Shown: one piece after another, positions 3,851 to 35,327 of the stretch
Numbering within the stretch: position 1 is the stretch's first letter
How the letters are laid out: every line of letters starts with the position of its first letter
Origin: Leucoraja ocellata
Lineage: Eukaryota
NCBI GenBank assembly: GCA_036785375.1
Contig: JAWMAR010000007.1
Coordinates: forward strand, 11,284,001 to 11,348,000
Direction of reading: 5' to 3'
DNA length: 64,000 nucleotides
Position numbers and translations under genes: made by a program
The notes under the pieces: generated by a model
Seen by the model: only the letters and a program-made list of their open reading frames with translations
The model's database searches: none
Told to the model about the DNA's origin: nothing

Positions 3851-3909
3851 TAAAAACTAAAGGTAACTAAAATAAAATCCATCTCAGTAATGTTTTTTTT
3901 TATTCACAG

Positions 3910-4232: not shown

Positions 4233-4277
4233 TGCTCAATCTATCTCTATGTTTCTGGTGTATGCTGTACATGTGAA

Positions 4278-12052: not shown

Positions 12053-12125
12053 CCCAAACCAAACCAAACCAAACCAAACCAAACCAAACCAAATTAACTA
12101 AATTAAACTAAATTAAACTAAACTA
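12053..12125 (+). repeat. (AAACC)n / (AAATT/AAACT)n microsatellite at a LINE tail
   Basis: Direct repeats. Confidence 0.9.
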
Positions 12126-13199: not shown

Positions 13200-13735
13200 A
13201 AAATTATGGAAGTCGATGTAAGTGTGAGAGACATGTCCCCAACTTTAGAATTCCAAAAGTGAGAGCAAAAGGGACAACAGCAGCTAAAGTGCTTGGTAAA
13301 CATTGGCTGTGCAGATATCGGAATTGAAAATATTGGGAATTATCGCGTTTGCTCACTGCATTTCATCAATAGTAAGGCATTATTTGTGTTTTTTCTTGAT
13401 TCCTTTGGTATCTAAAAAGTCTCAGAAGTGATAAATCTGGCTGTAAATTTTTCTTCAGATGCGTTATCATTTTGCATGTAAAAACCCACTTGAGAACCAT
13501 GGGCGATTTAAAAACTTTTCAGCCAGATTTATCACTTCTGAAACTTTTTAGATGCCAAAGGAATCAAGAACAAACACAAATAATGCCTTAGTTGATGAAA
13601 TGCAGTGAGCAAACTAAGCACTCTGGCTGTTGTTGTCCCTTCAGCTCTTGCTTCTATCTACCGTCATTTCTCCTCACTTTTGGAATTCTGAAGTAGGCTA
13701 AATGTCTCACACGCTCATCCCAATTTCCATCATTA
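13200..13735. repeat. Long foldback inverted repeat
   Basis: Inner arms 13347-13451 and 13510-13614 are near-perfect reverse complements; outer arms at about 13222-13295 and 13615-13712. Confidence 0.85.
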
Positions 13736-16700
13736 TTTACAGCACAAAAATTGACATTTTTGGCGGGTTTTAACGGGCCCGCTACGCTGGAAACAATGGT
13801 AAGTGCCTACCTGCGGTTCATCGCGTGTACTCCATTTGGAGTAGCGTAGCAACAGTACGGGTCATGGGTCGTAGCCCGACTGCCGTGAAACCTCCCTATA
13901 AAGGTGCCAACCAAAAACGTGACCTATCCACCATCTCCAGAGATGCGGCCTGGCCCGCTGAGTTACTCCAGCTCTTTGTGTCTCTTTTCAATAAAAGACC
14001 ACTCACATGCTGACCACACTCTCTACCCACCTCTCCTGTTGTGTGAAAGCTACAAAAGCTAGAAAACATCTACCACTCCTATCGAAGAACGGGTGTTTAG
14101 CTGCTGGTATCAAACCCTTGAAATGCACCATGTGCAAAGGATGTAAAACAGCTAACTTCTAATCCACCTTTTTTTCTGCATTTTCTCTGTAGCAGTAACA
14201 CTATGCTCATCACTATGTTTCCTTTCAGTTTAGAGCTATCTGAAGATGGGTCCCAACCAAAAAGGTCACCCATCCTTTTCTCCAGAGATGCTGCCTGACC
14301 CACTGAGTTTCTCAAGCACTTTGTGTCTATCCTCAGTATAAACCAGCATCTGCAGTTCCTTCCTAGGCACTCAAGTATAGTTTGATTGTACTCACATGTG
14401 ATAAGATGTGTCTGAGTTGCACTGTACCTTGGTACACATGATAATAATTAAAAACAAATACCAATACCAATAAGCTGTGAGCAGGCACTCTGGGGGCTTG
14501 CAGGTATTGCAGGGAACAAGATTCTGTTCACAGCATGGTTTGGAGTGTCAAACATTACATTAGGGTACTTGATGAGGTTTGAATCCTCTCTGGAGGTAGA
14601 AACAAAATGCTAGAGTAACTCAGTGGGACAGGCAGCATCTCTGGAGAGAAGGAATGGGTGATGTTTCAGGTTGTGATCCTTCTTCAGATTGAAGCTTTCT
14701 CAGACGTCTTCAGTCTCAATCCAAAACGTCACCCATTCCTTCTCTCCAGAGATACTGTCCGTCCCACTGAGTTACTCCAGCATTTTGTCTATCTTCAGTG
14801 TAAACTAGCATCTGCAATTTCTTCTGACACATTGAATCCTCTCTTGGCTCCTCTTCTCAGCATTTATTTTCCCATCAGTGCTGTTTTCCTGTTCCCTGCA
14901 GCCATGGATCGCTTTACCTGTGGGAAGACCAGTGTATCCTGGAGCAGGATTGGAAAGAGCAGATTTCCCTCCTGCAGCCAGTAAAGATGGTGAGAGCAAA
15001 TGGCTGCACGTCAACATAATTAGGATAAATTCTTGCCCCAATTGTCCTTGTTTCCGGAACAGAGTCTTCCTTCTCAAGGGGCTTTCTTTTCGAATGACTC
15101 CTTGCAGCAGAAATAAATGGACGGGTTCACCAGACAATGTATTATCACATGCTTTTGGAATGGGTGAAAGAACACAGAGTTAGCATGGTTAAACATGTAT
15201 TTAACAATCAAGAGTCAAGAGTGTTTTATTGTCATATGTCCCAAACAGAACAATGAAATTGACTACTGTAACTTCCTCTCCCCTGACGCTCGGACTGAAG
15301 AAGGGTCTCGAACCGAAACGCACCCATTCCTTCTGAGTTACTCCAGCATTCTGCATCTTTCTTTGGTGTAAACCAGCATCTGCAGTTCCTTCCTACACAA
15401 TTAAATTCTTAAAGGCCTGTCCCACTTGCGTGTCCTTGGTACGCAATATGTAAATGTAGTATCTAATNNNNNNNNNNNNNNNNNNNNNNNNNNNNNNNNN
15501 NNNNNNNNNNNNNNNNNNNNNNNNNNNNNNNNNNNNNNNNNNNNNNNNNNNNNNNNNNNNNNNNNNNNNNNNNNNNNNNNNNNNNNNNNNNNNNNNNNNN
15601 NNNNNNNNNNNNNNNNNNNNNNNNNNTGAACTGCTTTCAGTTTATTAGACTAATATATTAACATATTCTATTGTTCTGTATATATGTATATATATGTGTG
15701 TGTGTGTGTGTGTACATGTGTGTGTGCATACTGAACTTTTTGTTTATTAGATACTACATTTACATATTGCGTGCCAAGGTACACACATACATACATATAT
15801 ACACATATAACAAACAAATAAGCAACAATAGTGCAAAAAGACAAAACCAATAACCCAAGTCCATCTAGTTTAGAACTTATTTGGAGGTTGCAATGTTTAA
15901 TAGCTTGATGCTGTAGGGCTAGTCAAACCATGTTAGAGCTACCATAGTTAAACTTGTGTGTTGATCTGAGGGACTGTTTCAGGTGCACGTCCCAGTTCTT
16001 GGGGATTTCTTTATGGAGATTATGTTGAGAGAGCAGGGTAACAGAAACCATAGCGATGATCCTGGGTTACTCGGTGCCCTCTGTTGCTGGCTGTTCTCAC
16101 TGTGTTCTTGTTCCGCCAGCCTTACCAAGAGCAGAAGGTACTGTAGCGAATGCATTAGAGCACTCTGCTACTTTACAATTGCCTTTGAAACTAATGATGT
16201 AGAACGCCGAGGGAACATCATGTCCAATTCTCAGCAGATCAGAAGGCAGGATGGAACAGGAGCTCATGAGCTGCATGGTGTCCTCAACAGAAATGCCGCA
16301 CAATGTCTGGAGCATGAACCTGGCCGTACTTTAGATTTTACTTTAGGCTTTAGAGATACAGCGCGGAAACTGTCCTTCAGCCCACCGAGTCTGTTCTGAC
16401 CAGTGATCACCCCACACTCTAGGGGCAATTTACAATTTACAGAAGTCAACTTAACCTGTACGTCTACACGGTCACAGGGAGAACGTTCAAACTCTGTACA
16501 ACCGTAGTCCGGATCGAACACCCGTCTCTGGCACTGTAAAGCAGCAACTCTACCACTGCGCCACCGTGCCATTGTTGTGGATCACTATGCTCATTATAAA
16601 TAACCAGAGCATAGAATATTGCTGATGACCATTTTGTAACCGGCATTCGTTTCTTTGTGCTGTCATGGTGACATATTGCAAACCTTTGAAACTAAATTCA

Positions 16701-16865
16701 TTTTAAAATAAAGAGCACCAGCATCAGTGGGAATTATTGGATCCAGCAGAGAATTAATAAGATCATGAAAAACTGATTTTAATTTGCTCCCTCAGGGGGA
16801 TTTTCACTCACTGGACGTTCAAATTGGGCTACTGAGGGTCACATTTAAACAAGGCCAATATACTT

Positions 16866-17200
16866 GTGTAGGAAGGAACTGCAGATGCTGGTTTAAACCA
16901 AAGATCACCACAAAAAGCTGGAGTAACTCAGCGGGTAAGGCAGCATCTCTGGAGAAAATAAATATGTGATGTTTCTGGTCGAGACACTTCTTGAGACTGA
17001 GAGTCAGGGGAAAGGGAATTGAAAGATATAGACGGTGATGTAGAGAGATATGTCAACTGTGTGCTAGGTGAGAACGAGTACGGACAATGAGACTCAACAA
17101 GACTACTTTGAAGCTGATACGACTTGGGTGGGGGAGAGATGGAAAGAGAGGGAACGTGGGGGTTACTTGAAGTTAGAGAAATGAATATTCATACCACTAT
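16866..17200 (-). mobile_element. Penelope-like element 3' end / pLTR fragment
   Basis: Minus strand reads SGMNIHFSNFK*, resembling a Penelope ORF C-terminus, followed by the repeat unit that also forms the palindromic repeats in this window. Confidence 0.55.
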
Positions 17201-17999
17201 ACCAATATACTTTCCTGGAGTGAGGAGTCCAGAGTTACATGTAAAACACATAATGAATAAACAAATATCAAGAAAGATATAAGATCCGAGATGTTTATAA
17301 GATGAATTAAAAGTTGCCTGGACCTACATAATCATGGTTTATATATAATTATGAGAGGCACAAATAGTAGATAGTGCTTTTTCTGATATCTTTAAATGCA
17401 TATGTTTAAGATGAGAGGGTGAAAGTTTATAGGAGGTTCATGTGGCAAATGCTGTTTTACACAGATGCCTAGATGCCTGGAATATGCTGCCAGTGGGGTC
17501 ACAGAGATTCATAGTCATGCAGACAGAAACAGGCTCTTCGGCCCATCTTGCCCATGTTGACCAAGATGTCCCATCTACACAAGTCCTACCTGCCTGTGTT
17601 TGGCCCATATACCTCTAAACATTTCATATCATGTACCTGTCCAAATGTCTTTTAAATCAATGTCTCAACTACCCTTCAATTTCCAACACCGTACAGTTTC
17701 CATCAGACCAAGGAATCAAGCCCAAGTCTGCCCAATGTCCCCCAATATAAACTCAGTCGCTTGAGTTCTAGCAACATCCTTATAAATTGTTTCTCCACTC
17801 TTTCCAGCTTAATGGGATCTATCCTACAGCAGCATGATCAGAACTGAACACAATACTCCAAGAGTGGCCTTGCCAACATCTTGTGCAACTGCAAGTTTAC
17901 ATCCCAACTTCGATAGTGACCAGATTGATGATGACCAGCATGCCAAATGATTTCTTCACCACCCCGTCACCTTGTTATGTCACTTCAAGAAACTATGAT

Positions 18000-18500
18000 A
18001 ACCATATAACCATATAACAATTACAGCACGGAAACAGGCCATCTCGACCCTTCTAGTCCGTGCCGAACACATAATCTCCCCTAGTCCCATATACCTGCGC
18101 TCAGACCATAACCCTCCATTCCCTTCCCATCCATATAACTATCCAATTTATTTTTAAATGATAAAAACGAACCTGCCTCCACCACCTTCACTGGAAGCTC
18201 ATTCCACACCGCTACCACTCTCTCAGTAAAGAAGTTCCCCCTCATGTTACCCCTAAACTTCAGTCCCTTAATTCTCATGTCATGTCCCCTTGTTTGAATC
18301 TTCCCTACTCTCAGTGGGAAAAGCTTTTCCACGTCAACTCTGTCTATCCCTCTCATCATTTTAAAAACCTCTATCAAGTCCCCCCTTAACCTTCTGCGCT
18401 CCAAAGAATAAAGCCCTAACTTGGTCAACCTTTCTCTGTAACTTAGTTGCTGAAACCCAGGCAACATTCTAGTAAATCTCCTCTGTACTCTCTCTATTTG
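18000..18500 (-). mobile_element. CR1 LINE 3' fragment
   Basis: ERVQRRFTRMLPG...LYSLERRRLRGDLIEVFK...FFTERVV; (accatata) tail. Confidence 0.9.
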
Positions 18501-21500
18501 ATCTTCTGCTCTGTTCCAGAACACTCCGCAGGGCCCTACCAATGAAAGTCCTTCCCTGGTGTAACTTCCCAAAATGCACCATCTCGCATTTATCCAAATT
18601 AAAACACAATTTTCAATTCCTCGGCCAATTTACTCAAATGATCAAGATCCTTCAATAATTCTTGAAAACCTTCTCTACTGTATCACACCACCTATTTTAG
18701 TTTAGTTTAGTTTAGATATAAAGTGTGGAAGCAGTCCCTTCTGCCCACAGAGTCCATGCACGAGTTCCATGCTATCCCACTTTTGAATCCTACGTACTCG
18801 GGGCAATTTTACTGAAGCCAATTAACCTACAAACCTCCTGGCCTTTAACACATTTTCCCAGTTGATCTATTGTACATCCTGCAGTAATCTCCAATAACCC
18901 TCTTCACTGTCTACCATGCCACCAATCCACAAACTTACTGACTGTGGTAACTACATTCTTATCCCAATCATTAATATAAATAACAAACAATGGTGGGCCC
19001 AACATCGATCTCTGCATTGTTCACCAATCCATAAGACCATAAGACATAGGAACAGAATTTGGCTATTCGGCCCGTCAAGTGTGCTCTGTAATTTGATCAT
19101 GGCTTATCTACTTTTCCCTCTCAACACCATTCTCTTCTCTCTGTAACCTTTGAAGCCTGTACCAATAAATAAAATCAATCTCTGCTATGAAAACAACTAA
19201 TGACTTGGCCAGCACAGCCGTCTGTGGCAACGAATTCCACAGATTCACCATGCTCTGGCTATACAAATTACTCCTCATCTCCGTTCTAAAGGTACATCCT
19301 TTGAGTCTGTGTCCTCTGGTCCTAGACTATCCGACTGGAAATATCTTATTTACATCCACTCTATCTAGGCCTTTCTGGGAGGTTGGTATTGTTATAGGTT
19401 CATGGAATAGGTAGAGTTAAAAGCTTCATTTACATGCTATCCAGTCAAATGATACCATGCTTTAACACAATCAAATCATGCACAATTACAGCAGGGATTG
19501 CATAGGTAAAAATATCAGAGTGCAGACTATAACGTTACAGTTTATAGTTTAGTTTAGGTTAGTTTAGTTTAGACAATAGACAATAGGTGCAGGAGTAGGC
19601 CATTTGGCCCTTCGAGCCAGCACCACCATTCACTATGATCATGGCTGATTATCCACAATCAGTACCCCGTTCCTGCCTTCTCCCCGTATCCCTTGACTCC
19701 GCTATCTTTAAGAGCTCTTTCTAATTCTCTCTTGAAAGCATCCAGAGAATCGGCCTCCACTGCCTACTGCGGCAGAGTATTCCAGGGCCCTGTACAACTT
19801 GCTCCTATACTCAACTCCTCTTGTTATGAAGGCCAACATGCCATGAGCTTTCTTCACTGCCTGCTTTACCTGCATGCTTACTTTTTAGTTTAGAGATACG
19901 GCGTGGAATCAGGCCCTTTGGGCCACCGAATCTGCACCAACCAGCGATCCCCGCATATTAACACTATCCTACACACACCAGGGACAATTTACACATACAC
20001 CAAGCCAATTAATCTACATGCCTGTTCGTCCTAGGAGGAAACCGAAGATCTCGGAGAAAACCCACGCAGGGTTTGAGCATGAACTCGTTAGAGAACGTAC
20101 AAACTCTGTACTATTCCCTAGCTTAAAGCATCTGAGCAGTGAGAGGAGGTAGAAGGTTCCGGAGTCTTTACCATGGACAGCAGAGGGTGATTTCTAGATC
20201 TTTGGGGAATATAGAAATCCAGCTGAGATTGCCACTTGTGAGAGTGAAGGATCTGGGAGGTCTGTGCATGCACGGAGCAGATACTAACTGTTATCTGGTA
20301 AAATCTAAATCTAAATCTATACCTACTATCTACTGCCACCAACCATTTGAAGAATTTAGTAAAAAAGGAATTTCACAGCATGATTCCTGATCCAGGAACA
20401 TTGACTGAATGTAGGAGCAAAATGGAAAGGCCAAGTGGAGTTGGTGCTTGAATCGGGCCATTTCTTAAACTGGTACACAAACCAAAGCTGACCTGTCAAG
20501 TGTGGCTGTGCTACATTGTTTTATATTCTCAGATAACAAAATTACTCAGAAATTTGATAAACGATAACTCGAAGTCTCAATTACAGAATGGGACTCAGAA
20601 AGACTTAATTAGGTGATGAACAGAATGAGATGATTATCCACAAGTCTACATTCATTCACAGTGTTCATACATCCAAATTTCAGTTATAATGATGGGTGCA
20701 TGCATAATCAATAAAACTCCCGTTAGGCTTTGTCTGCGGTTTCCTGTCACCACATTAGTACAACACCGCATCTCTATTTACTAATTATTAGCTCTTGCTA
20801 TTGTTTACCCTACCACACTGAACATTGCCATAGCCAGGCAGCGGGCCTGGCCCGCCCACTGCGGAACCTGGAACTCGCCACCGAGCCGGGCTTGTACCCG
20901 AGGACCAGGAACAGCCCAGGAGGGTGGAGGGTGGAGGGAGTCGACAATGGCGGCAGATGCTGGGGTAAAGGGCCAGTAAGTCTGTTGGATGCGATCCCTA
21001 GGGCACAAAGGCTGAAGGTGGCCCAGGCAGGGAGAGGAACGATGGGTCGCCGGCAATCCGGAAGGAGGAGATGGTTGCAACAGGTATTTTTGGCCAGCAG
21101 CAGCTGGGACTTCGAAAATGACACCAAAACCTGGCGACATTTGTATATGGACTCAGTGGCTTGGTTCTATATATATGCTGTACTTAGTCGAGAATTGTAC
21201 TTACGTTTGGCAATAATTGTACTGAGCTGAATGCAAAAAGAGAACTTCACTGTACCTTGGTACAGGTGATAATAAAGAACCATTGAAACATTGACTATTG
21301 ACCATTGACCATTGAAGTTTGGGAATTGCCCGTTCAAGTGCAGGGATTGGATTCTGGACCTTGATAGTCTTACATTTTTTGCCCATTATTTCTTAATGAG
21401 ACCTTCATAAGGTCATAAGTGATAAGAGCAGAATTAGGACATTCTGCTCTGTCATTCAATCATGGCTGATCTATCTCTCCCTCCCAACCCCATCCTCCTG

Positions 21501-21718
21501 TCTTCTTCCCATAACCCCTGACACCCTTACCATCAATTTACTTTTGAAGTTCATCTGCAGTGACAGAATACAATATCTAACGAATGGCTGGGAGAAAAGT
21601 TAGCTCCGCATCTGTCCTAGCTTGGCTTCAAAGGTGGGCAGAGGAAGTCCACAAAGTCTTCTCCATGTCGGGGAATTGAAAGGGAAAGTGAAGAATGATG
21701 GGTCAGTTCTCCCTCCCT

Positions 21719-21756
<38 letters not shown>

Positions 21757-22238
21757 CCCACCAACAGTGCTTCCCAGGGCTCGCTGGACACTAAAAGCTG
21801 ACAAACATGGTGGTGAAAATCAACTTAAATCCTGAGATACATGGAAGGAGCAACTAGAAAGGGCAGCACAGTGGCACAGTGGTAGAGTTACAAGACAAGA
21901 GACCCGGGTTCGATCCTGTCTATGGGTGCTGTCTTTACGGAGTTTATACATTCTTGCTGTGACTGTGTGGGCTTTCGCCGGGTGCTCCGGTTTCTTCCCA
22001 CATTCCAATGAGTCTTGGAAGGTTAATTTTGTTAGTAGAGGATTTGTAGGCTAATTGGCTACTGTAAATCGGCCGTAAAGTGTAGGATAGAACTAGTTCA
22101 TGAACGATCGTATGTGAGCATGAACTCATTAGCTGAAAGGCCTGTTTCCACGCTGTATCTCTAAACTAAACTAAACTAAAAGACGGTGGCCAACTCCTGC
22201 TCTGACTGAATCTGTACATTGCCAGGTGATATCATATC

Positions 22239-22315
22239 ACTAAACTAAACTAAACTAAACTAAACTAAACTAAACTAAACTAAACTAAACTAAACTAAAC
22301 TAAACTAAACTAAAC
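22239..22315 (+). repeat. (CTAAA)n microsatellite
   Basis: About 15 perfect units. Confidence 0.95.
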
Positions 22316-22912
22316 CGAAAAGTCACCCATTCCTTGTATCCAATTGTGACAAATCTATATGTCATTTTGAAACCATTTTTGGTGTCAGGGTGATGCAGCA
22401 GTAGAGTTGCTGCCTTCCAGCCAGTGACCTGGGTTCAATCCTGACTACAGGTGCTGTCTGTACGGAGTTTGTACGCTCTCCCTGTGACCCTGTGGGTTTA
22501 CTCCGGGTGCTCCAGTTTTCACCTGCATTCCTCCTGCATTCCAAAGGTTTATAGGTTAATTGGCTTTGGTAAGAATAGTAAACTGTCCCTATTGTGTAGG
22601 ATAGTGTTAGTGTATGGGAAACAGCGGTCGGCACGGTCTCAGTGGGCTGAAGAGCCTGTTTCTGTGCTGTATCTCTAAACTCTAAGCTAAAACTAAACCC
22701 CATACTGACCACAGAGTGGGTATCAAGGAGATCAATGCTGTAGCCAGCACTGCAGTCACCAATTAATTAGACTAAACATTAATCAATATTGTATTTAGAT
22801 AAGGCTAGGACTTTGTGTAGTTGAGTACGGAAACATCTTCAAAAGATGTTAGAAAATGATACAAATGTTAATGGAAAACTGCAATAAGTCACTGTAAATG
22901 AGTAAAAGCGGC

Positions 22913-22918
22913 TATAAA
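22913..22918 (+). promoter_or_regulatory. Candidate TATA box of relaxin-like gene 2
   Basis: GCTATAAA about 60 nt upstream of the ATG at 22975. Confidence 0.5.
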
Positions 22919-22974
22919 CAGAGGAAAGAGCTGATGAATGTAAGAGGCAGGGGTGGTCAGGACTGTGAACTGAA

Positions 22975-23158
22975 ATGAGAAATCTGGTGCCAATCCTGGC
23001 CGTGGAGCTGCTGCTGTCGATGTCCTTTATCACGGGCTTTGCCAAGACACTTGATCTGGATGAGGTATACAGAAAGCTCTGTGGCAGATTCTACCTGAGG
23101 AAGGCAGTGTTCATCTGTGAACACGTCAGGGGAATATCTCTGCACACCCGTGGATATG
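22975..23158 (+). CDS. Relaxin-like preprohormone gene 2, exon 1 (signal peptide + B chain)
   Basis: MRNLVPILAVELLLSMSFITGFA-KTLDLDEVYRKLCGRFYLRKAVFICEHVRGISLHTRGY. Hydrophobic leader, B-chain LCG-X10-C, relaxin cassette R-FYL-R-KA-V (RxxxRxxV). Phase-1 donor G|GTGAGT at 23158/23159. Confidence 0.93.
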
Positions 23159-23446
23159 GTGAGTGCTGACATCCCTGTAATTCATTTGGGCCACAAAGTG
23201 CTCACCGTGATGGCCTAACGGGGCAAGTGTTATTGCCATTACAATGGGAGGTGCTATTTATCATTGAAGTGTGTATGATATTACGGCTTTAGCATGTAAA
23301 TAGAAACAGAGTACAGGTTTTCAGTACTCGCTGTTGCCAGTGGGGGTCTTCTTTATTTTTCAAAAATGTACACTTCGCATACTCACACATATTCATGAGA
23401 CTAATAAGATATTGAATATATCACATGACATAAATCATACCCTTAT

Positions 23447-24775
23447 GGGCGGCATGGTGGCACAGCGGTAGAGTTGCTGCCTTACAGTGCTTGTAGTGCC
23501 GGAGGCCTGGGTTCGACCCCGACTATGGGTGCTGTGCAAAGACGTACTGGTTTGTAGGTTAATTGGCTTGGGTTTGTATACTTGGTATAAATGTAAATTG
23601 TGTGTGTAGGCTTGTGTTAATGTGTGGGGATCACTGGTCAGCGCGGTCTCAGTGGGCCGAAGGACCTGTTTCCGCGCTGTATCTCTAAACTAAACTAAAC
23701 TAAATTCGAGTACTCTGTATTTAAAGTTGCAGTTACCATTATCTACACTATTATATACGGTAGAGTTGCTGCCTTACAGCGAATGCTGGGCCGCAGACCC
23801 AGGTTTGATCCCGACTACGGGTGCTGTCTGTATGGAGTTTGTACGTTCTCCCTGTGATCTGCGTGGGTTTTCTTCCAGATCTTTGGTTTCCTCCCACACT
23901 CCAAAGACGAACAGGTTTTTTGGGTTAATTGACTTGATAAATGTAAAAATTGTCCTAGTGGGTGTAGGATGGTATTAATGTGCGGGGATCGCTGCTCAGC
24001 GCAGGCCCGGTGGGCCCAATGGGCCTGTTTCCATGCTGTATTTCTAAACTAAGACCCTGGTAAACATAGGCTTGCTCAAAAATGACATGATGTCCAAGGT
24101 TAGACAGAATAAAGTAAAGTTTATTTTAGTTCAGAGATACAGCGAGGAAACAGGCCCTTCGGCTCATCGAGTCTGCACCTCACAAGCAAGCTCTGTACAC
24201 TCGCACTATCCTACACTGTCATAGGAACAATTTACAATTTTTACCAAAGCAAATTAATTTACAAACCTGTAGGTCTGCGTAAAAACCCACACAGGTCAAA
24301 GGAGAAGGTACAAACTCCGTACAGACAGCACCCATGGCCAAGATCGAGCCCGGGTCTCTTGTGCTGTAAGGCAGAACTCTCCTGCTGTACCACTGTGCTG
24401 CTCTTTTGTAAAATACATTCCTACAGATGAGCTGAACCACTCAATGGGGTTTATTATTTATGCTTTATAATTATGTAGTTTATGAAGTGGCACGGTGGCG
24501 CAGCGGTAGAGTTGCTGCCTTAAAGTGCCAGAGACCCAGGTTTGATCCTGACTACGGGTGCTGTCTCTATGTATTTTTTATGTTCTCCCCGTGAGTGCAT
24601 GGGTTTTCCCATGAGAGGTCCAGTTTCCTCCCTTTGGTAAAGAGCGGTAGGGATTTGTAGCTTAATTAGCTTTGGTAAAATTGCAAATTGGCCCTAGTGT
24701 GTAGAATAGTGTTAATGTATGGGGATCGCTGGTCAGCGCGGTGGGCAGAAGGGCCTGTTTCTGCGCTGTATCTTA
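23447..24775. mobile_element. Cluster of four V-SINEs in the intron of relaxin-like gene 2
   Basis: Copies at about 23447(+), 23755(+), 24120(-) and 24487(+) share the same head, V-domain and tail. Confidence 0.8.
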
Positions 24776-26160
24776 TACTTTAAAAAATATATTTTATTTT
24801 ATTAGAAGTACGTACAATCATATGGCACCAAAGTGCCTAATATATATTTTCATAATACATTTTATGTTCAGCTTTTTGTTTTGTTATATTAAAGAAAGAT
24901 TAGAATAAGAAAAATAAATTAGATAGTAAAGGATAGAAAGACGTGAGATATATAGTGTGTGAAGAAAAAGAAAAAAGACGAATGAGTGAAGAAAGTCGAG
25001 AAAAAGAAAATTAAAAAAAGAGAATAAAACATAAAAAAATAAAATTAAAAAAAAGTAAGGAGATCATTGTTTATAATCTTGACCAACCCTCGTCCAGTCC
25101 TGAAACAGTTATTTTTTACAATTGTGTTGCACCATATGATTCCAAAAAGACAATAATAATAATAATCTTATTTATATAGCACATTTCCAGTCAACTTGCA
25201 TTGACCCCAAAGTGCTTCACATAATTACATTACATTACACACAGGCAAAGGTGGGTGAAGTGTCTTGCCCCAAGGACACAACGACAGTATGCACTCCAAG
25301 CGGGATTCAAACAGGCTACCTTCCGGTTGCCAGCCGAACACTTAGCCCATTGTGCCATCTGTCGACAAAGCTGTATCTTATACAAAACTAAACTAAACTA
25401 TTGTCACATGCAGCGAGGCACGGTAAAAATTTTCATTTGCATGCTATCCAGTCAAAGAAAAGACTAAACATGACCACAATCAAGCTGTCCAAAGTTTAAT
25501 TGTCATATGCACCTTCGCTCCATAGATGCTGCTGCACACGCTGAGTTTATCCAGCTTTTTTGTGTACTGACAACAAAACAATGATGTTTTCACTTGCAGC
25601 AGCATAATGAGCCTGTAACACAATACACAAAGATAATGAATAACCCCAATGCTATTGTAAAACAAATCTCTGGTTGACCAGCCACCATGTCAAAAGTTGT
25701 GTGTTTAATTGTCATTTTTATCATGATCGGAGCAATGAAATTCTTGCTCACAGCAGCATGGCAGGCCTGTAAACACAATACATACAATAAACAGTAAAAA
25801 TCAATAATTTAATAACCCCATATTAGTGCAAGGAAGCTTGAAATCCTTAGTGCAACCCAAGACAGTTGACAGCTCATAGGTCAGAGCCTGATGGTTGTTG
25901 AGTAGAAGCTGCTCAACCTGGTGGTCAAGGCACGAGTGAAATGAGAGCATGGCCAGGGTGGTGTAAGTCTTTGAAGATGCTGGGAATCCCTATAGTGGAG
26001 TGGACAGTACTTGTAATAGACTGAGGGGTGACCACCATATTTTATAATCTCCTTTGTACCTAGGCATTCGAGATACCAAACCAGGCAGTGATGCAACCAT
26101 GACTTCAAGAAGGGGGTGAAATGATAATAATTAGGGTACATGTTTTTACTTCTATTCCAG

Positions 26161-26462
26161 ATAGCTTCCTGAGCTCAAGTGCTGAAGATTATGCCAGGGA
26201 GATTTTCAGAAGGCACCCAGGTCAACTGCTGATAAATGGGCGGCTTCAGCAACTGGAGCCCTATCGCGGACAGCAACTGTTTCTGAACCGCGGCCTGCTT
26301 GGGCCGAAGCCAGAGGATGCCCCTTGGAGAAACAGTGCCAGCACCAAGCAACCCTCTCCGATGAGCGGTTTCCGGCGTGTTGTCAAGCAAGGAGTTAAAA
26401 GGCAATGTTGCCTAACCAAATGCACTGCCAGGGAGATATCCTACAGCTGTCGCAGTCCGTGA
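26161..26462 (+). CDS. Relaxin-like preprohormone gene 2, exon 2 (C-peptide + A chain)
   Basis: ttccAG acceptor at 26159-26160, phase 1, in frame with exon 1 (184+302 nt = 161 aa + stop). Ends ...SGFRR-VVKQGVKRQCCLTKCTAREISYSCRSP* with canonical CC-X3-C-X8-C; AATAAA at 26864. Confidence 0.93.
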
Positions 26463-27645
26463 CGTCTGGCACTTCACCGTGCCGATGGAATATTCTGCGC
26501 ACATAGTTTCAAAAATCAGAGCAATTACTATTTAGGAAGGAAATTGTTACCAATTCAGCCGTTGTCCACAACTCTAAACAGTCACACATGGTGACGGGAT
26601 CTGACGTCCGCAATCCCTCAGGACTTTCTGTCAAGTTTGATTGGGAAACCCTATGCAGTTTTATGATTTCCACAGCCAAATTCACATGGAGGGTGCTTGC
26701 AGAGGAATTTCTATGCAGGCAGTGAAAAATTCATTGTGTGTAGCCCATTGTCTTCAATAACATAGTAGCCTCCATGACAAGGATTTGTAGTCCTGCAGTA
26801 TTGAATTTTTAAAACAATTAAAAAGGTTGCAGCGCAAATGGTTTCCATGTCTTTTCATTTCTCAATAAAACAATCTAATTAATGGTGAAAGAGAGCCGTC
26901 TTCTCCGTGCTTCTGCACATGCATTTACAACAGCATTTGAAAGGAGACTTGGATAAAACTGATTGATTATTGAGCACAGCATCAAATGCATCAACGATTC
27001 CTGCTTTTGCAATCCCACAGAGTTTAGTTTAGGGCTAGTTTAATTTATTATTGTTACCTGAAATTCTGTGCTTGCATACAAGTACAGTGAAATTCTTTGC
27101 TTGCATACCCAAGGTATGCAAATTGTCACCCTTAAAGGGCGCTTACAAAGTTACAAAGTACCCCCACGCCAGGTTCTTCTTTGTTCTATCTTCCTTCCTC
27201 CCCCTCCTTCACGGCGGTCCCCCTACGTTGGGTCCTCCGTTGTTCCTTTCCTCGGCAGCGGCGTCCTCACTTCCACGTGGTCCATCCACGTCTGTCGGTC
27301 AGCGCCATCATCGACCGCCGCACCGACCTCTCCACTGACACCGTTGGGTCTCCTCTGGACCCTTCTGTGGCACCGACCCAGGCCCAAGCCGCATGGCTCT
27401 GGTGACCCAGAGTCCGTTGGCCGCGGGCTTTGTCGATTTGCGAGGCTCCGCCTCTGCCTCTGACCCGCGAGGTTCCGACCTGCGAGGCACCAGCCCGCGA
27501 GGTTCTGGCCTATGCTCCTCAGCGGCATCTCCGTAAGGCGTTCACTGATAGAATGAGTATGAGTATGAATTGATAGTATGAATCTGTTGACCCTGACAAA
27601 TGACACGTCGAACAAAAGGTTCTAAACCAAGGTTTAGTACAACTT

Positions 27646-30546
27646 AATAGTAAGATTAAACAAGAACTTACCAGTTCGAAGTTTGATCGTTATTTTATGA
27701 AAGAGTACGTTGAGGGAATATGTGAAGAACCCCGCCAGGACGCATGCGTGTCATTCTTCAAAGCAGCGGTGTGAAATCACAGATAACTGTAATGACTGAA
27801 CATAGTAAGATTAGAGAAGAAAATACCAGTTGAGTATATGATCAAGGGTGGGAGCGGAGGGCACATATTCCCTCAACGTACTCCTCATAAAATAACGATC
27901 AAACTTCGAACTGGTAAATTCTCATTTAATCTTACTATTTTACTTCAGAGTCACACGATGCCTCCTGTGCCTTTCATCTACCTCCACAGATGGAGATGGA
28001 AATTGGTAGTACCCCAACCAAGCGCACTGGCATCAGTTTGTAGCATCACTAAGGGTTTGCTGATAACGATAGGGTTGGAACAATGCCGAATGTTATCCCT
28101 CCACCATTTTAATTCCATAAGCTTTGATTGGTGGCTTATTGGTCTGTCGAAATGACCAGTATTAACATTGAGTGTTTGTATTTTGCCCTTTGTAGATTTT
28201 TGGTAATACAAAGGTCCAAATTGTGTGGCTGGAAAGGCAGACACTATATGCCAATTATACTTGCTACCAATCTGATAGACGGTTCACTGATGTCAGTGGG
28301 GTTGTTGCAGGCCTCAGTTAAGATTGTAGCCTTGTCCTTTGGTAAAGTCACCGACATGTGAGCAATCAATAGTGAACCCCAAATAATCCATTATGTTGGT
28401 AGGCGTTAGTTTAGATTTAACTGGATGGATGATAACCCCAGTTTTCACCCAATTGTATGGTGGCTGTTACAGCTGGTTAGGCCAACTCCAATGTTATGCC
28501 CACAATTAGTATGATCATATGATTATGTATTTGGTAGAGCTCTATACTGCCAGAGCTGTCCCATCCAGTTGAATTTTTTTAAATAACGTTTGTGATCAGT
28601 CCGTGTAGGCACTGAATAGTAAGCATCTTTTAGGTCGATGCTAGCCATGGAGTAGCCTTTGGAAATCAGTCCTTTAGCAGTTACCAGTTCCCATTTTGTA
28701 CTGAATATATAGTACAATGTATTCCAGCCAATCGTGTTGGGTTTACCCATTGCCCCTTTTGCACAATTCAATGGTGTATCCCTGGATACTGCTTAGGATA
28801 TAAGTGTCTGTAGTTAATATACACCATGTATCCAAAAGAGTGTAATCTCCCACCAATGTGTGTATTATCCACTCTTCCTATAATTTGTAAGGGACCAGAC
28901 CCACCTACATCCATTGTTACCAGTGGAAGTTTGCTTCTTCTGTGTGGTCTTCGTGGAGGTTGAGGCGCCGGTGTCTGGGTTTGCTTTTGGGCTGGGGGTT
29001 TGCGCATCTTCCAGGAAGGCCGGTCTGGGCTATGGTCTAAAAGACCGCTGTCCTGTATGCCCGGCCTTTGAGCTTTCACCAGCTTCTCTTGTTCTGCTGG
29101 TGGGTGCATAAGGGTGCTGTCTTTGGCTGTAAGAGATCCTTAATGTTGTCGCCTTTATGAGCCCCATGGCTTTCCTAAGTCCTGCTCCGACATGTTTCCC
29201 GATGCTATTTCCACGACTGGAACATTCAGGGATGCGCAGTTTCCTGGTCCCAAGTATGTTTGCAGTGGTGTCCATCGTGGTCTGGATATATGTATTTGGA
29301 CACCATGACCAGTAGATTTTGCCTTCCTGCACCCCCTGCACACTTGTAGTTTTGATCATCAAAACCCCTCTTCAGGGTCAGCCCAGAATTGGCCCCCCAG
29401 TACTCCCCTCTGACGAGGGAGATGCATTGTGCAGCCCTACAGGAGGTGCTGCTGTGGGTTTTACATAGTGCCCACAGTGACTAGACTCCATCTCCCGGAG
29501 CCTGTCATGTTGGAGCTCGGCTCCATAAGCCGCTCCAACCGGCTCCAGCGCTCACGGTCGCTGGCCGCCCAAAGTCGGACTCATCAGTTCTCGACTCTTT
29601 TGGTTTTCTTCTTGCCTTCCCGCCCAGACGCTGTGTTTAATCTGGCCGGTGCGAGGGCGAAGTCGGGCACAGCTGTTCCCTTACGGGTGATTCCTGTGCC
29701 GCCGGCCGCTGCTGGCGTCCGCAACTCCGCGGTCTTCCCCCACCAGCTCTGGTCGACTTGTTTGCCTTGTGCATGTTTCCCCCACCTGTAGAACAGTATG
29801 GGAACAATAAAGACCGCAGTATCACATACCTGCAGGTCCAGGCTTAAAACTTGCCGTTATGGGGGACCGTCCTTCCACCCCTCCTCCTGCCATTTTGACT
29901 TGTCAAAGCCAACGGCTCCGTTCTGTATAGTCTCCCGCCCAGCCATGGTGTTTAATCTGGCCGGTGCGGGAGCGAAGTCGGGCACAGCTGTTCCCTTACG
30001 GGTGCCGCCTGCCGTTGTTTGCACAGCTCTCCATGTTTCCCCACCTGTAGAACAATATGGGGAGAATAAAGACCGCAGTTTCACTTACCTGCAGGTCCTG
30101 GTTTAAACTGTCGCTACGGGAGAAACGTCGTTCCACCCCGCCTCCTGCCATTTCGACTTGTCAAAGTCGACGGCCCCATTCTGAATAGTCTCCCGCCTGG
30201 CCGTGGTGTTCTGGCCGGCGCGGGACCAACAGTCGGCACAGCTGATCCCACTTACGGGGCTTGTGCCTTCAGCTGCTGCTGGCTCCCACAACTTCGCGGT
30301 CCTCCCCAGCCAGCTTTACTCGCAGCACTTGTGGACACTATTTTGTCCAGCCTCCCCCCCTGTGTAAAACAGCGCGGGGACAAACACTACCGCAGAGTAA
30401 ATCACTTACCTGCAGGTCCCGGTTTCAAACTTACCGCTGCGGGGGAACGCTCCACTCCGCCTGTCGTTTCGCAAGCGTGAAAGCGATATGACACGCATGC
30501 GTCATGGCGGGGTTCTTCACGTAGTCACTCATGTGACTCTGAAGTT
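27646..30546 (-). mobile_element. DIRS1-type retrotransposon, degenerate, tyrosine recombinase region apparently deleted
   Basis: Minus-strand RT motif ASIDLKDAYYSVP...WQYRALP (28523-28771) and RNase H motif QTDASALGWG (27978-28244). ITRs at 27722-27753 and 30489-30520; ICR at 27862-27955 is complementary to 27646-27724 and 30532-30545. Confidence 0.88.
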
Positions 30547-30699
30547 AAATCTTTATTAACACTCGAGTAAGATAAACATGCATGCAAACTAATATCTTCT
30601 CATTTACTTTACTATTTCAACTTATCACTTCTCAAACTAAATCACAAAACTCATGACTTGGACTCAGATATTATCCGTATAAATGAATTGGCCAGATTG

Positions 30700-31215
30700 A
30701 CCCAATTTGAGGAAGGACATTCTTGCTATTGAGGGAGTGCAGCGTAGGTTTACAAGGTTAATTCCCGGGATGGCGGGACTGTCATATGCTGAGAGAATGG
30801 AGCAGCTGGGCTTGTACACTCTGGAGTTTAGAAGGATGAGAGGATACCTCATTGAAACATATAAGATTGTTAAGGGCTTGGACACGCTAGAGGCAGGAAA
30901 CATGTTCCAGATGTTGGGGCAATCCAGAACCAGGGGTCACAGATTAAGAATAAGGAGTAAGCCATTTAGAACGGAGACAAAGAAGCACTTTTTTCTCACA
31001 GAGAGTGGTGAGTCTGAGGAATTCTCTACCTCAAAGGGCGGTGGAGGCAGGTTCTCTGGATGCTTTCAGAGAGAGCTAGATAGGGCTCTTAAAAATAGTG
31101 GAGACTGGAGATATGGGGAGAAGGCAGGAACGGGGTACTGATTGGGGATGATCAGCCATGATCATATTGAATGGCGCTGCTGGCTCGAAGGGCCGAATGG
31201 CCTACTCCTGCACCT
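30700..31215 (+). mobile_element. CR1 LINE 3' fragment
   Basis: AIEGVQRRFTRLIPG...EFRRMRGYLIETYK and the conserved 3' UTR. Confidence 0.9.
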
Positions 31216-32047
31216 NNNNNNNNNNNNNNNNNNNNNNNNNNNNNNNNNNNNNNNNNNNNNNNNNNNNNNNNNNNNNNNNNNNNNNNNNNNNNNNNNNNNN
31301 NNNNNNNNNNNNNNNNNNNNNNNNNNNNNNNNNNNNNNNNNNNNNNNNNNNNNNNNNNNNNNNNNNNNNNNNNNNNNNNNNNNNNNNNNNNNNNNNNNNN
31401 NNNNNNNNNNNNNNNNNNNAATAAGCTACAAAATAAAACAAATCCTTATTGAAACCTTTGTGAATCAAGTTAGCCAAAATGTGCTTTCATGGGAACTAAT
31501 ATCATGGGAAACTAATCTTTCTAACCTGACCACGTACCTTCATCAATAATGCAATGTTTCAAACGTAGATTAACATATATAAAGTGATTATGTAAAGTAT
31601 TAGAAACTGCTGACAACAAAATATTTCAGTGAGCCCAACAATGCAAGTTGTCAGCTGCTACATGATATGTCAGACATCAGTTATCCACACTGAATGGTTG
31701 GACTAAGCATTAATCAAACAGAGGGCTGTAGCTGCACTTAATTAGGACATTACAAATTTGAGACATTGGAAAAACGTCAAAAGAGTCCAGGTAATGGGAT
31801 AAAAGTTAATGAAAAACCAATGAGGCACATTAAGAGTGGGTGCAAAACTGTCCTGAAGGAAGAAGGAGCGGATGAGTGGAGAGGGTGGCGACTGGAATGA
31901 AATAGTGAGGTAACTCAGAACCAGTCCAGAAATCCAGACAAGTGGCAGCTTGAGACGGAAGAGTGAACTTACCCGTGGAGGAAGTCAGCAGCGGCTTATG
32001 CTGTAGAACGATCAGGGAGAGACTCCATCCGACCAGAGTGAGCGGCA

Positions 32048-32230
32048 ATGAAGAATCTGCTGTCAGTCCTTCCAATGGGGATGCTGCTCGCTGCCCTTAC
32101 AGACTCCGCAGGGACCACAGCAATCAACCTTGATGAGCAATTCACCAAGCTGTGTGGCCGAGACTTTGTAACAAAAGTCGTCAACGTCTGCAGAGGAATC
32201 AACTGGAAGGATCTCCTTCCCGTCTAGATG
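32048..32230 (+). pseudogene. Relaxin/INSL-like gene 3, exon 1 (signal + B chain) with an apparent 1-nt deletion (pseudogene or assembly error)
   Basis: MKNLLSVLPMGMLLAALTDSAGTTAINLDEQFTKLCGRDFVTKVVNVCRGINWKDLLPV*. Colinear with gene 2 (Cys36 and Cys48 in both). TAG at 32225-32227 lies just before the donor G|GTGAGT at 32230/32231. The exon is 183 nt versus 184 nt in gene 2; adding one C to the CCC run at 32219-32221 restores ...LLPRLD and phase 1. Confidence 0.88.
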
Positions 32231-32364
32231 GTGAGTCACAAATCCACAAACCAGGCGTGGGAATAGATCATTTGTACTTTACTGTTCATTCAAAGGATGT
32301 GTGCTTTGCCAGCTGAGCCACAATTTAATTGCCCATGTCTGGTTGCCCTTGAGGAGGTGGTTAA

Positions 32365-32583
32365 AGGGGCATCATTTGCGCATCATTTACACAACATCAT
32401 TTACGCGTCACGATGCACAACTCACGCGTCGTGACACGCACGTGATGCATTACGCGCGCATGGTATGTGGTGATGTAGGCAGTGACGCGCGGTCGCGTGC
32501 GGTGCCCCAGGGTTTCGGGATTCGCAAAATCTTCGCGCGCCACCTGTGTAACGCGTAAATGACGCCCAAGTGAGACCGGCCCT
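32365..32583. mobile_element. Harbinger-like MITE, reverse-orientation relative of 34639-34875
   Basis: The body is the reverse complement of 34639-34875; right TIR cccaagtgagaccggccct. Confidence 0.7.
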
Positions 32584-34638
32584 TTAGTTTCAGTTTAGAG
32601 ATACAGTGTGGAAACAAACTCACCGCTTCCGCACGGACCTCGCACAATAACACTACCCTACACACACTGAGGACAATTTACACTCATACCAAGCCAATTA
32701 ACCTACAACCTGTACGTTTTTGGAGTGTGGGAGAAAACGGAAGATCTCGGAGAAAGCCCATGCAGGTCACGGGAGAACGTACAAACTCTGTACCGACACC
32801 ACCCGTAATCAGGATCGAACCTGGGTTTCCAGCGCTGCATTCGCTGTAAGGCAGCAACTCTACTTCCCCACTGCCACGATGTCTAAAGAACAAAATGAAC
32901 AGATAAAAATGACCAGACATAACTTTTTTTGAAGGATTAGTGGAGAATAGGATGAACTACAGACAATCTCATGCTAATGGAACATATCTACATAGATCAT
33001 AGGTGTAGGAAAGACACAAAAAGCTGGAGTAACTCAGCCGGTCAGACAGCATCTCTGGAGGAAAGGAGTATGTGAGGTTTTGGGTCAAGAACCTTCTTCA
33101 GAACAGTGCTAGAGTAACTCAACGGATCAGGATCTCTGGAGAACATGGATAGCGGATACTGAAGAAGGATCCAGACCCATAACGTCACCTATCCATATTA
33201 TCCAGAGTTGCTGCCTGACCTGCTGAGTTACTCCAGCACTTTGTGTCCTTTTTTATAAACCAGCATCTACAGACCCTTGTTTCTACTATGAGACAATGTG
33301 TCTGGTCAACAATACTTACCGTGAAATAGGGATGCGATGCTTCTCAGGTAATTGTGATCAACCAGTGTTGGAGGAGAACCGTGTGGAGATGAGGAGGAAT
33401 TTCTTTAGCCAGAGGGTGGAGAATCTGTGGAATTATTTGCCACAGAAGGCTGTGGTGGCCAAGTCAATTAATATTTTTAATGCAGTGTTAGATAGATTCT
33501 TTATTAGTACGGGTGTCGGGGTTATGGGGAGAAGGCAGTAGGATGGGGTTAGGAGGGAGAGATGGATCAACGATGATTGAATGGCAGAATAAACTTGATG
33601 GGCTGAATGGCCCAATTCTGCTCCTATCACTTATCACCTCATTACCTTATGTGAACTCTGTTAGTGCATTGGAGCAGACTGCAGTCTGGTTCGACACTGA
33701 GGACAGGAATGATGGGGGGGTCAAGCAGCATCTGTGAAGGCAAAGGGCATAGGATGAGACCTTGCACCAAATCCTGATGCTGGTCTCAAACTCAAACATC
33801 GACTTGCACTTTCTGCCTCCACGGGTGCCGCATGAATTCTTCTGGCAGTCTGTCATCTGTTTTGTTGACCGGAATTTTGTTGATTGGAGTTACGCTCTCT
33901 GAATAGACAGTGAAAGCATCAAGAGCCCGACTCAAGGCTGTTTGTCATGTGCACTTACAGGGGAACAATGAAAATTCTCACTTGCAGCACCAGAACTGAA
34001 CTGTAAACACAATACACGTAGATAATGTAATAAACAACATCTAATTAATCAATAATTCTAACAGTGGTGCAAAATTACCCAAAGTCCTGAGTGCAAGCAA
34101 AGGCACAGCCGAGGTTAATATTGAGTAGTGGTCAATAGACTGACGGTTGTTGGGATGAAACTTTTATTGAACATGGTGGCCACAGTTTACAGATTCCTAT
34201 CCATTCTTCCCTATTGTTAGTGCAAAATGAGAGCATGGTAAGGGCAATGTGGGTCTTTGATGATACTGGCTGCCTTTTTAAGTTAGCACCTCCTATAGAT
34301 CTCTTCAATGGTGGTGCCAATGCCCCTTCATTCCTGGGCGTCCGAGTGGCATGGTGGCGCAGCGATACCTTTCAGCGCCAGAGACTTGAATTCGATCCTG
34401 ACTGTGGGTGCTGTCTGTATGGAGTTTGTACGTTCTCTCTGAGACCATGTGGGTTTTCCCCGGGTGCACTGGTTTCCTCCCACATTCCAAAGACATACTG
34501 GTTTGTAGATTAATGGGCTTTGGTAAATTGGAAATGGCCTTAGTATGTGGGATAGTGCACAGGGTGATCGAGGAACTGCATGGACTCGGTGGGCAGAAGG
34601 GCACGTTTCCACGCCATGTCTCCAAAAATTTAGTCTAA

Positions 34639-34875
34639 AGGTCCTGTCCCACTTGGGCGTCATTTGCGCAGGTGGCGTGCAAAGATTTTGTGAATCCCCA
34701 AATCCTGGGGCGCCTCGCGCAACCGCGCGTCGCTGCCTACGTAACCATGCACTATGCGCGTGTAATGCACACCATGCGCGCGTAATCACATGCGTAATGC
34801 GTAATCACATGCGCGTCATGCGTAAATGATGTTACGTAAATGACACGCAAATGACACCCAAGTGGGACAGGCCCT
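34639..34875. mobile_element. Harbinger-like MITE with TAA TSD
   Basis: TAA|aggtcctgtcccacttggg ... cccaagtgggacaggccct|TAA. Confidence 0.8.
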
Positions 34876-35001
34876 TAAAGAGTTCCTGAACCAGGTTGCG
34901 ATGCAGCCTATCAGTACGTAGCTGAGACAAAGCGACAGAAAATAAAATTGGATGGCAATAATTTCCCAATGTTGACAGATCGGATTTTACTTTTGTTCCA
35001 G

Positions 35002-35327
35002 ATCCCTCTCAGTCCTCTGGAGATGATGCCCTTGTGAAAGACATGATGAAGATGCAGATGCTGCTTCCCGGTAATGGGACTCACGATCCTGACACGGACA
35101 ATGGAGAACAAGGATTACACCCAGACCTCAGCCAGAGTGAGGAGATGCCTGATGATGTCCATGGGCTTGTCACACAGACCCCTGGAGATCACGAGGCACT
35201 GCTGGGTCTGGAAGAACCATTTATCCATCGGAAACTGACCAAAAGGCAAATTTCAACCACCGATCGCTGCTGCAAAAGCAGTTGCACATTGAGGCAGATC
35301 CGCCGACTGTGTTTCCAGACAAAATGA
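35002..35327 (+). CDS. Relaxin/INSL-like gene 3, exon 2 (C-peptide + A chain)
   Basis: ttttgttccAG acceptor at 35000-35001, phase 1. DPSQSSGDDALVKDMM...IHRKLTKR-QISTTDRCCKSSCTLRQIRRLCFQTK*, with canonical CC-X3-C-X8-C after KR; AATAAA at 35778 and 35789. Confidence 0.9.

Follow-up and report, generated by a model that had tools for sequence, protein, structure and literature searches.

The 64,000-nucleotide (nt) window analysed here, from the skate Leucoraja ocellata (contig JAWMAR010000007.1, hereafter C7, in the 3.44-Gb assembly GCA_036785375.1, G000), contains a two-exon gene, gene 2, that is predicted to encode a precursor of the relaxin family. It belongs to a cluster of at least 12 relaxin-like genes, among which it alone combines the full RxxxRxxV cassette of the B chain with dibasic sites at both ends of the C peptide. 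The explanation that we favour, tentatively, is that gene 2 encodes a secreted, convertase-processed paralog of relaxin (RLN) that would act on an RXFP1-type receptor, probably more weakly than RLN, in the gonad or a male accessory gland.

Structure of gene 2

The features of gene 2 are given below. Coordinates without a prefix are window positions, the window being C7:11284001-11348000.

22913..22918, + strand: TATAAA, 62 nt 5' of the ATG, with a putative promoter role
22975..23158, + strand: exon 1 (184 nt), encoding the signal peptide and B-chain core, with phase-1 donor G/GTGAGT
22975..23043, + strand: predicted signal peptide (residues 1-23) with a hydrophobic core; cut after A23 by the -3,-1 rule only
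23080..23118, + strand: B-chain Cys36-Cys48 helix with the RxxxRxxV cassette; no Gly and no Trp past Cys48
23159..26160, + strand: intron (3002 nt, GT-AG), for the most part high-copy repeats
26161..26462, + strand: exon 2, encoding the B extension/C peptide, A chain and TGA; acceptor TTCCAG/
26208..26213, + strand: RR78-79, the sole dibasic B/C site
26373..26378, + strand: RR133-134, the first C/A site, which would give a 27-residue A chain
26397..26402, + strand: KR141-142, the second C/A site, which would give a 19-residue A chain with one residue before CC
26406..26450, + strand: A-chain CC-x3-C-x8-C, with loop CCLTKC lacking the Gly of CCxxGC
26864..26869, + strand: AATAAA, the likely polyadenylation signal

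The layout is that of a signal-B-C-A precursor with an intron in the 5' part of the C region, the signal peptide being recognised by hydropathy and by the -3,-1 rule, which residues 17 and 21 fit too. Joining 22975-23158 to 26161-26462 across the GT-AG intron gives an open frame of 161 residues and a TGA in only one of the three splice phases tried, which bears out the intact precursor proposed in a first-pass annotation of this DNA; intactness is read at the DNA level only. The six cysteines (residues 36, 48, 144, 145, 149 and 158) are spaced C-x11-C in the B chain and CC-x3-C-x8-C in the A chain. The full cassette noted in that annotation is located at R38, R42 and V45 (23086, 23098 and 23107), and the B chain lacks a C-terminal Trp, as had been stated: the single Trp of the precursor is residue 117, inside the C peptide. 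No N-glycosylation sequon is present. The pattern CxRxxxRxx[IV]xxC matches once in the window, compared with one match across 30 mononucleotide shuffles taken together.

Cleavage at RR78-79, a site absent from the first-pass annotation, would give a 54-residue B chain (residues 24-77) if the signal peptide ends at residue 23. On the A-chain side, the nine residues reported between RR133-134 and CC are present, but the A chain would be 27 residues long, with a three-residue tail, and not 24 as had been supposed; nor is the nine-residue spacing fixed, since one relative (P0001/P0007) has eight. The second KR just before QCC, also noted earlier, is KR141-142 at 26397, an alternative C/A site. Another relative has IG in place of VV in the A-chain extension, and KR-Q-CC is retained in both that relative and P0001/P0007.

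Assignment to the relaxin family

Taken by itself, exon 2 of gene 2 matches the Pfam Insulin family (PF00049) with E=0.0025, which does not reach the curated cut-off, and exon 1 by itself has no Pfam match. In profiles built from the cluster, the B chains of INSL3, INSL5, relaxin and relaxin-3 outrank insulin for exon 1 (11 sequences; best E 2e-4), and the A chains of INSL3, relaxin and relaxin-3 do so for exon 2 (12 sequences; best E 4e-3). Profile searches of the PDB give RLN3, INSL5 and INSL3 chains as top matches. Gene 2 itself is closer to relaxin/INSL chains than to insulin or IGF and has no D/E domain. The protein atlas look-alikes of one cluster paralog are relaxin-3/prorelaxin clusters at 0.94; an AlphaFold model of the stingray paralog P0004 is of low confidence (pLDDT 52, pTM 0.25). 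A passage of PMC551602 defines relaxin, by sequence, through the B-chain motif RxxxRxxI/V, and gene 2 falls within this definition through R38, R42 and V45. We regard the predicted identity of gene 2 as a relaxin-family precursor as supported.

The relaxin-like gene cluster

Twelve distinct relaxin-like genes lie next to CD274 at C7:10.408-10.764 Mb (~355 kb). Motif scans of C7:10.23-11.448 Mb yielded this number, which is a minimum (at least 12). A genome scan with PF00049 is unfit for counting relaxin genes, as it found three weak cluster exons and none of RLN, RLN3 and INSL3; it did recover the insulin and IGF genes. All 12 genes have two exons and a common layout, with signal peptide and B chain in exon 1, a phase-1 GTGAGT donor, and C peptide and A chain in exon 2. 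Beyond the 12, there are genes 1-3 of the window and, behind a gap, part of a second copy of an exon 2.

The B+A cores of the 12 paralogs (43 columns) are 14-60% identical, mostly ~30%. All three cassette positions are present in gene 2 only (1 of 12), two other paralogs having two of the three, and RR or KR stands at both ends of the C peptide again in gene 2 only. Eleven of the 12 lack the full cassette, yet retain six cysteines and open frames. The A-loop Gly occurs in six of the 12. Gene 2 is the member predicted to be most hormone-like, because it alone has RR/KR on both sides of the C peptide.

Model lengths are 154-169 residues for 11 paralogs, and the twelfth (c13) has a repeated C peptide and is 328 residues long in L. 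erinacea. The repeat in c13 (C7:10754227-10755100) has a unit of ~57 residues and is seen also in the L. erinacea protein XP_055488220.1. Four paralogs (c04, c10, c11 and c06) have nine instead of eight residues between the last two A-chain cysteines and so deviate from the insulin signature. The genes on either side of gene 2 are placed as follows.

C7:11277485-11277647: gene 1 exon 1, ~6.5 kb before the window
3910..4232, + strand: gene 1 exon 2; this paralog lacks the cassette Arg
32048..32230, + strand: gene 3 exon 1, with two of the three cassette positions; the window copy lacks a base near 32219 and so runs into an early stop
35002..35327, + strand: gene 3 exon 2

The twin of gene 3 at C7:10675314 is open, and the base missing at 32219 in the window copy represents either a null allele or a sequencing error.

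Origin of the cluster

Skate RLN is found at C443:232775-235579, by PLGRKT and JAK2, RLN3 on C4018, and INSL3 on C6 beside a JAK gene. As these three sit on separate contigs, the cluster is extra to the canonical genes, and gene 2 is not a one-to-one ortholog of RLN, which itself occupies the JAK2-PLGRKT locus on C443. INSL5 was not located in the assembly by a degenerate-pattern search, the MIER region not having been fetched. The full cassette is present in four other gene types of the genome, namely RLN, its duplicate, RLN3 and INSL3, all of which also have CCxxGC.

The RLN duplicate is itself multi-copy. At least seven near-identical copies (98.8-100%) lie in alternating orientations just past RLN, at C443:26001-216000; four have both exons and three are represented by exon 2, with no complete exon 1 found. 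They keep RxxxRxxI and CCxxGC and lack the B-chain Trp, and the length of the A-chain tail varies between copies. The array is either a real amplicon or an assembly artefact.

A V exon with its best match to PD-L1 (E=2e-23; next family CD276 at 1e-18) lies 34 kb past the last cluster gene, together with a C-domain exon. These V and C exons of skate CD274/PD-L1 are at C7:10797741-10799600, between the relaxin cluster and UBA6, and the order past the cluster is CD274, UBA6 and then a Siglec-15-like array. RCL1, a 9p24 neighbour in human, is also on C7, 5.5 Mb away. JAK2, PLGRKT and RLN map to C443 and RIC1 to C298, none of them to C7; in this assembly the 9p24-like block is fragmented, and the locus must therefore have been rearranged. 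For comparison, human RLN1/2, INSL4/6, JAK2, PLGRKT and CD274 are all placed at 9p24.1 in a passage of PMC4314585, and PD-L1 is recorded in cartilaginous fish by PMC12151841, in passages that name no neighbour genes. A Pfam scan of 148 of the 159 exon candidates in the flanks gave only UBA6-like, two V-set and transposon matches, and identified no upstream neighbour gene among them.

The leader sequences also point to RLN. Over 60 nt around the ATG, 11 of the 12 paralogs are nearer to RLN than to RLN3 or INSL3 (mean identities 55%, 43% and 32%, against 58% within the cluster), and gene 2 and RLN share 60% nucleotide identity over this leader/signal stretch. Because of the synteny with CD274 and RCL1 and the RLN-like leader/signal sequence, we take RLN to be the source: the cluster likely arose by an old tandem duplication of RLN, and a later rearrangement would have split the cluster and CD274 from JAK2-PLGRKT-RLN. 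The cluster had also been considered as a fifth locus unrelated to RLN, given that C7 carries no JAK gene, an idea dropped once CD274 was found beside it.

Sequence constraint, distribution and expression

Exon 2 of gene 2 from a related species (run X4) differs by 17 substitutions and a 12-nt in-frame insertion, contains no stop and keeps the four exon-2 cysteines. The residue changes number six of 73 over residues 62-134, two of nine in the A extension and none of 18 in the A core. Exon 1 has at least five substitutions; those listed give A9T, F39Y and H50K and spare R38, R42 and V45. In another relative the interval from RR to CC is a residue shorter. On these comparisons the cysteine core and the KR are held and the presumed N-terminal stretch of the A chain varies. 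Exon 2 is changed at 17 of 302 sites and the 3' flank at 12 of 438 (Fisher p=0.054). Positive selection on exon 2 was considered and is not shown, given this p value and a ratio of nonsynonymous to synonymous change (dN/dS) below 1.

Beyond the genus, one paralog (c02) has orthologs in Hypanus sabinus, two Mobula species and Narcine, with 72-79% core identity in the three compared and no cassette. Within it, c13 matches the L. erinacea protein 'uncharacterized LOC129695362' (XP_055488220.1), and one cluster gene is 93-96% identical to an L. erinacea protein. All five named homologs found are batoid, and no shark homolog was among the matches, in word-based searches that need shared exact words and have low reach. 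For gene 2, no protein record was found in NCBI or UniRef, its counterparts being unspliced Logan open reading frames only; a homolog search with exon 2 by itself had a single candidate, which did not pass, and a search of representatives returned two matches, one such frame from a close relative and one spurious match of 4178 residues. Most of the cluster seems to be missing from protein databases.

No reads fell on the gene 2 exons in any of five RNA runs (X6, X8, X11, X12 and X15), with tissue and species coded and with an organism label that differs from that of the DNA runs, 1-25% of each run having been read. The run search gave no RNA run among the matches listed.

Proposed receptor and mode of action

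The first-pass annotation had taken gene 2 for an RXFP1/2-type ligand. This stands in so far as the predicted peptide is of the relaxin family, is not of the RXFP3/4 type and has RXFP1 as a possible receptor; it does not extend to RXFP2 binding in the INSL3 mode, nor does the cassette by itself imply RXFP1. For RXFP3/4, B26Arg and B27Trp are described as essential for activation in a passage of PMC5468247, and gene 2, which has no B-chain Trp, is unlikely to be a ligand of these receptors, in line with the first-pass annotation. INSL3 binds RXFP2 through HxxxRxxVR and a C-terminal Trp27, called essential in the part of PMC4561518 concerned; gene 2 has neither, and binding in this mode appears unlikely. 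The same source states that H2 relaxin binds RXFP2 in the same way as RXFP1, a mode that may also apply to the gene 2 peptide. RXFP1 is a plausible receptor, for which skate RLN is predicted to be the better ligand.

The N-terminus of the gene 2 A chain is set by which dibasic site is used. Passages of PMC4837482 describe the A chain as a second RXFP1 binding site and report that the A(9-24) truncation reduces affinity and potency. Since cleavage at KR141-142 leaves one residue before CC, it would mimic that truncation.

We propose that the signal peptide would be removed after residue 23 and that cuts of PC1/3 or PC2 type at RR78-79 and RR133-134 would release a 54-residue B chain and a 27-residue A chain, linked by disulfides; additional trimming at KR141-142 would weaken the peptide. 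The cassette would dock on the acidic leucine-rich repeat patch of RXFP1, probably more weakly than that of skate RLN or with a different selectivity, because the A loop and the end of the B chain have diverged. RXFP3/4 would not be activated and RXFP2 not bound in the INSL3 mode. The gonad or a male accessory gland would be the tissue, by analogy with the sites from which elasmobranch relaxin-like peptides have been isolated: passages of PMC2805637 and PMC551602 mention testis, ovary and alkaline gland, and the last of these is called unique to batoids in a passage of PMC8300314. The other 11 paralogs, which lack the full cassette, would be orphan peptides like INSL4 and INSL6.

Several observations weigh against this proposal. 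As to descent from RLN, none of JAK2, PLGRKT, RLN and RIC1 is on C7, and any physical linkage of the cluster to RLN is hypothetical; the core of gene 2 is 30% identical to that of RLN, compared with 40% for RLN3 and 37% for INSL3; and the tree separates the cluster weakly (73/86 branch) without joining it to RLN, with gene 2 on a long branch of 2.15 changes per column. As to function, dN/dS between gene 2 and its relative is ~0.7-0.8 (hand count: 14-16 nonsynonymous changes over 369 sites, six synonymous over 114), and the cassette being kept or regained once by chance among 12 genes is not negligible (rough leave-one-out ~0.06). Gly A14 is important for relaxin activity. Gene 2 lacks this A-loop Gly, which is found in all four of the skate gene types compared with it (RLN, the RLN duplicate, RLN3 and INSL3). 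It also lacks the Gly after the second B-chain Cys and carries Lys at a position that is Ala in RLN and RLN3. The cassette is moreover insufficient for RXFP1, because the R3/I5 chimera, made of the relaxin-3 B chain and the INSL5 A chain, fails to activate this receptor according to a passage of PMC5468247.

Alternative explanations

A possible alternative, and the one that fares best, is that gene 2 is expressed and secreted but no longer acts through RXFP1-4, the cluster encoding fast-evolving seminal or reproductive-tract peptides with functions in sperm or egg case and the cassette being a leftover. The retention of six cysteines and open frames by 11 cassette-less paralogs would be expected of such peptides, as would the conservation of c02 across stingray, manta and electric ray. 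A relaxin-like molecule of male stingrays that lacks the motif is cited as non-functional as relaxin in a passage of PMC551602, and INSL4 and INSL6 have no known receptor according to part of PMC12702675. The alkaline gland, unique to batoids as noted above, would match the batoid origin of all five named homologs, but that list comes from the low-reach searches already described. Gene 2 is alone in having the three cassette residues and the full dibasic set, and the changes listed in its relative spare both; this speaks against the alternative.

It is improbable that gene 2 is a duplicate that is silent or in decay but still has an unbroken frame. The dN/dS value, the p value for exon 2 against the flank, the frameshift in the window copy of the adjoining gene 3 and the lack of a protein record would all agree with decay, but neither copy of gene 2 has lost its open frame, splice sites, TATAAA or AATAAA, the indels in its relatives (12 nt; one codon) are all multiples of three, and the A core is unchanged. 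Paralogs that have diverged to ~30% identity with their frames kept require long-term selection.

That gene 2 is instead the skate ortholog of canonical RLN, RLN3, INSL3 or INSL5 and shares the receptor of that gene is very improbable: its top core identity is to RLN3 and INSL5 was not located with the degenerate pattern, but RLN, RLN3 and INSL3 lie elsewhere with conserved motifs and neighbours, no JAK FERM, RFX or MIER match was found on C7, and gene 2 has an RLN-like leader and lacks the Arg-Trp B-chain end of INSL5 and RLN3.

Copy number

Genes 1-3 of the window lie in a block that is repeated elsewhere on the contig.

1..38025, no strand assigned: part of a 52.8-kb block (C7:11269195-11322025), an inverted repeat of C7:10669880-10720331 at ~97.5% identity

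Between the two copies of gene 2 there is one silent change and one Ser/Thr replacement. We consider the block probably an allelic haplotig of C7:10669880-10720331, a question that is independent of the function of gene 2. It begins at the first base past one 200-N run and stops at the next, matches its twin end to end, and tiles without overlap next to the segment that the unplaced haplotig C1653 covers (C7:10730671-10797344; 98.7%). The RFX and MIER genes are likewise doubled and inverted on single scaffolds, and two contigs carry JAK1, at 98.2%. In DNA run X1 the contigs contain one mosaic version only, and such contigs drop variants. A real young inverted duplication, which would make genes 1-3 additional and the total 15 genes, and not second alleles of three of the 12, is unlikely, although mismatches with the twin reach 1.6% of aligned sites as against 1.0% for the clear haplotig C1653, true duplications at 95-98% are frequent in the flanking Ig-gene array, and N runs are indistinguishable from masks. 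Uncollapsed haplotigs are many in this assembly (C268, C75, C403/C267, C6/C1166 and C1653), some of them scaffolded inverted on the same contig, so that copy counts taken from it need care.

Comparison with known systems

Gene 2 resembles vertebrate RLN (RFLB locus; human RLN2; skate RLN) in its two exons, phase-1 intron, six cysteines, RxxxRxxI/V motif, nine residues from the dibasic site to CC, RLN-like leader/signal and linkage to CD274. It differs in having ~30% core identity, no CG or Trp past the second B-chain Cys, no A-loop Gly, a second KR adjoining CC and a three-residue A tail, and in belonging to an old 12-gene cluster that is apart from JAK2-PLGRKT-RLN in the assembly. With RLN3 and INSL5 (RXFP3/4) and INSL3 (RXFP2) it shares the cysteine frame, but not the Arg-Trp end of the B chain or HxxxRxxVR/Trp27.

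The cluster looks like a batoid parallel to the mammalian expansion that produced INSL4, INSL6 and RLN1/2 at 9p24. Both would consist of tandem duplicates of the RLN locus that diverged fast and lost the cassette in most copies, and a passage of PMC551602 describes the A chain as more constrained than the rest of the precursor in the mammalian case too. The skate cluster differs in its independent lineage, in having 12 genes and not four, and in a member, gene 2, that keeps the cassette. Outside mammals, four relaxin-family loci with one gene each, partly doubled in teleosts, are described in part of PMC2805637, and both this source and a passage of PMC551602 give four loci and an expansion specific to mammals. 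We found no description of a batoid relaxin cluster in the open literature, subscription work on cartilaginous-fish relaxin evolution being beyond reach. The peptide class is already known, and the 12-gene expansion is undescribed in the literature searched.

The closest named records are the NCBI 'prorelaxin-like' proteins of Hypanus sabinus (XP_059829819.1), Mobula hypostoma (XP_062903739.1), M. birostris (XP_072113271.1) and Narcine bancroftii and the 'uncharacterized' XP_055488220.1, which match c02 or c13. They differ from gene 2 in lacking the cassette, and bear automatic names only. The stingray male relaxin-like molecule, as cited in a passage of PMC551602, is batoid, relaxin-like and, like 11 of the 12 paralogs, without the full motif; it is glycosylated, whereas gene 2 has no sequon and has both arginines.

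That molecule, described by Bullesbach, Schwabe and Lacy in 1997, reportedly came from alkaline gland fluid and had a 27-residue A chain and a 54-residue B chain. Gene 2 would reproduce these chain lengths, and we treat the tie as a lead only. A wider proposal, which we hold to be doubtful, is that the cluster represents an undescribed batoid family of at least 12 RLN-derived peptides, already present before skates, stingrays and electric rays diverged, which would have arisen together with the alkaline gland as rapidly evolving signals in semen. The 1997 molecule would then belong to this family, perhaps as the ortholog of gene 2, and gene 2 alone would still address the female RXFP1.

If the cluster is what we propose, the RLN locus expanded independently in placental mammals and in batoids, and this mostly unannotated 12-gene set is the second large expansion of that locus. 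Its members, which range from none to three of the cassette positions, would be a natural peptide series for probing the requirements of RXFP1. They would also be candidate sources of the relaxin-like activity of male rays, as yet uncharacterised, and a set with which the orphan status of INSL4 and INSL6 could be compared. Gene 2 by itself would be modest, one more relaxin paralog and a putative hormone, the weight lying mostly with the cluster.

Other genes in the region and family

One insulin gene and four IGF-like genes were found on C11, C15, C201 and C251, one IGF-like gene lying by insulin on C11 and the others on C15, C201 and C251. Those on C15 and C251 are not near-identical and do not look like mutual haplotigs. 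In the window itself, 49613-61641 contains exons of a Siglec-15-like gene, of Ig V-set and C2 type, the first domain matching human SIGLEC15 with E=5e-14. They belong to a multi-copy Siglec-15-like array of 95-98% segmental repeats at ~C7:10.94-11.44 Mb.

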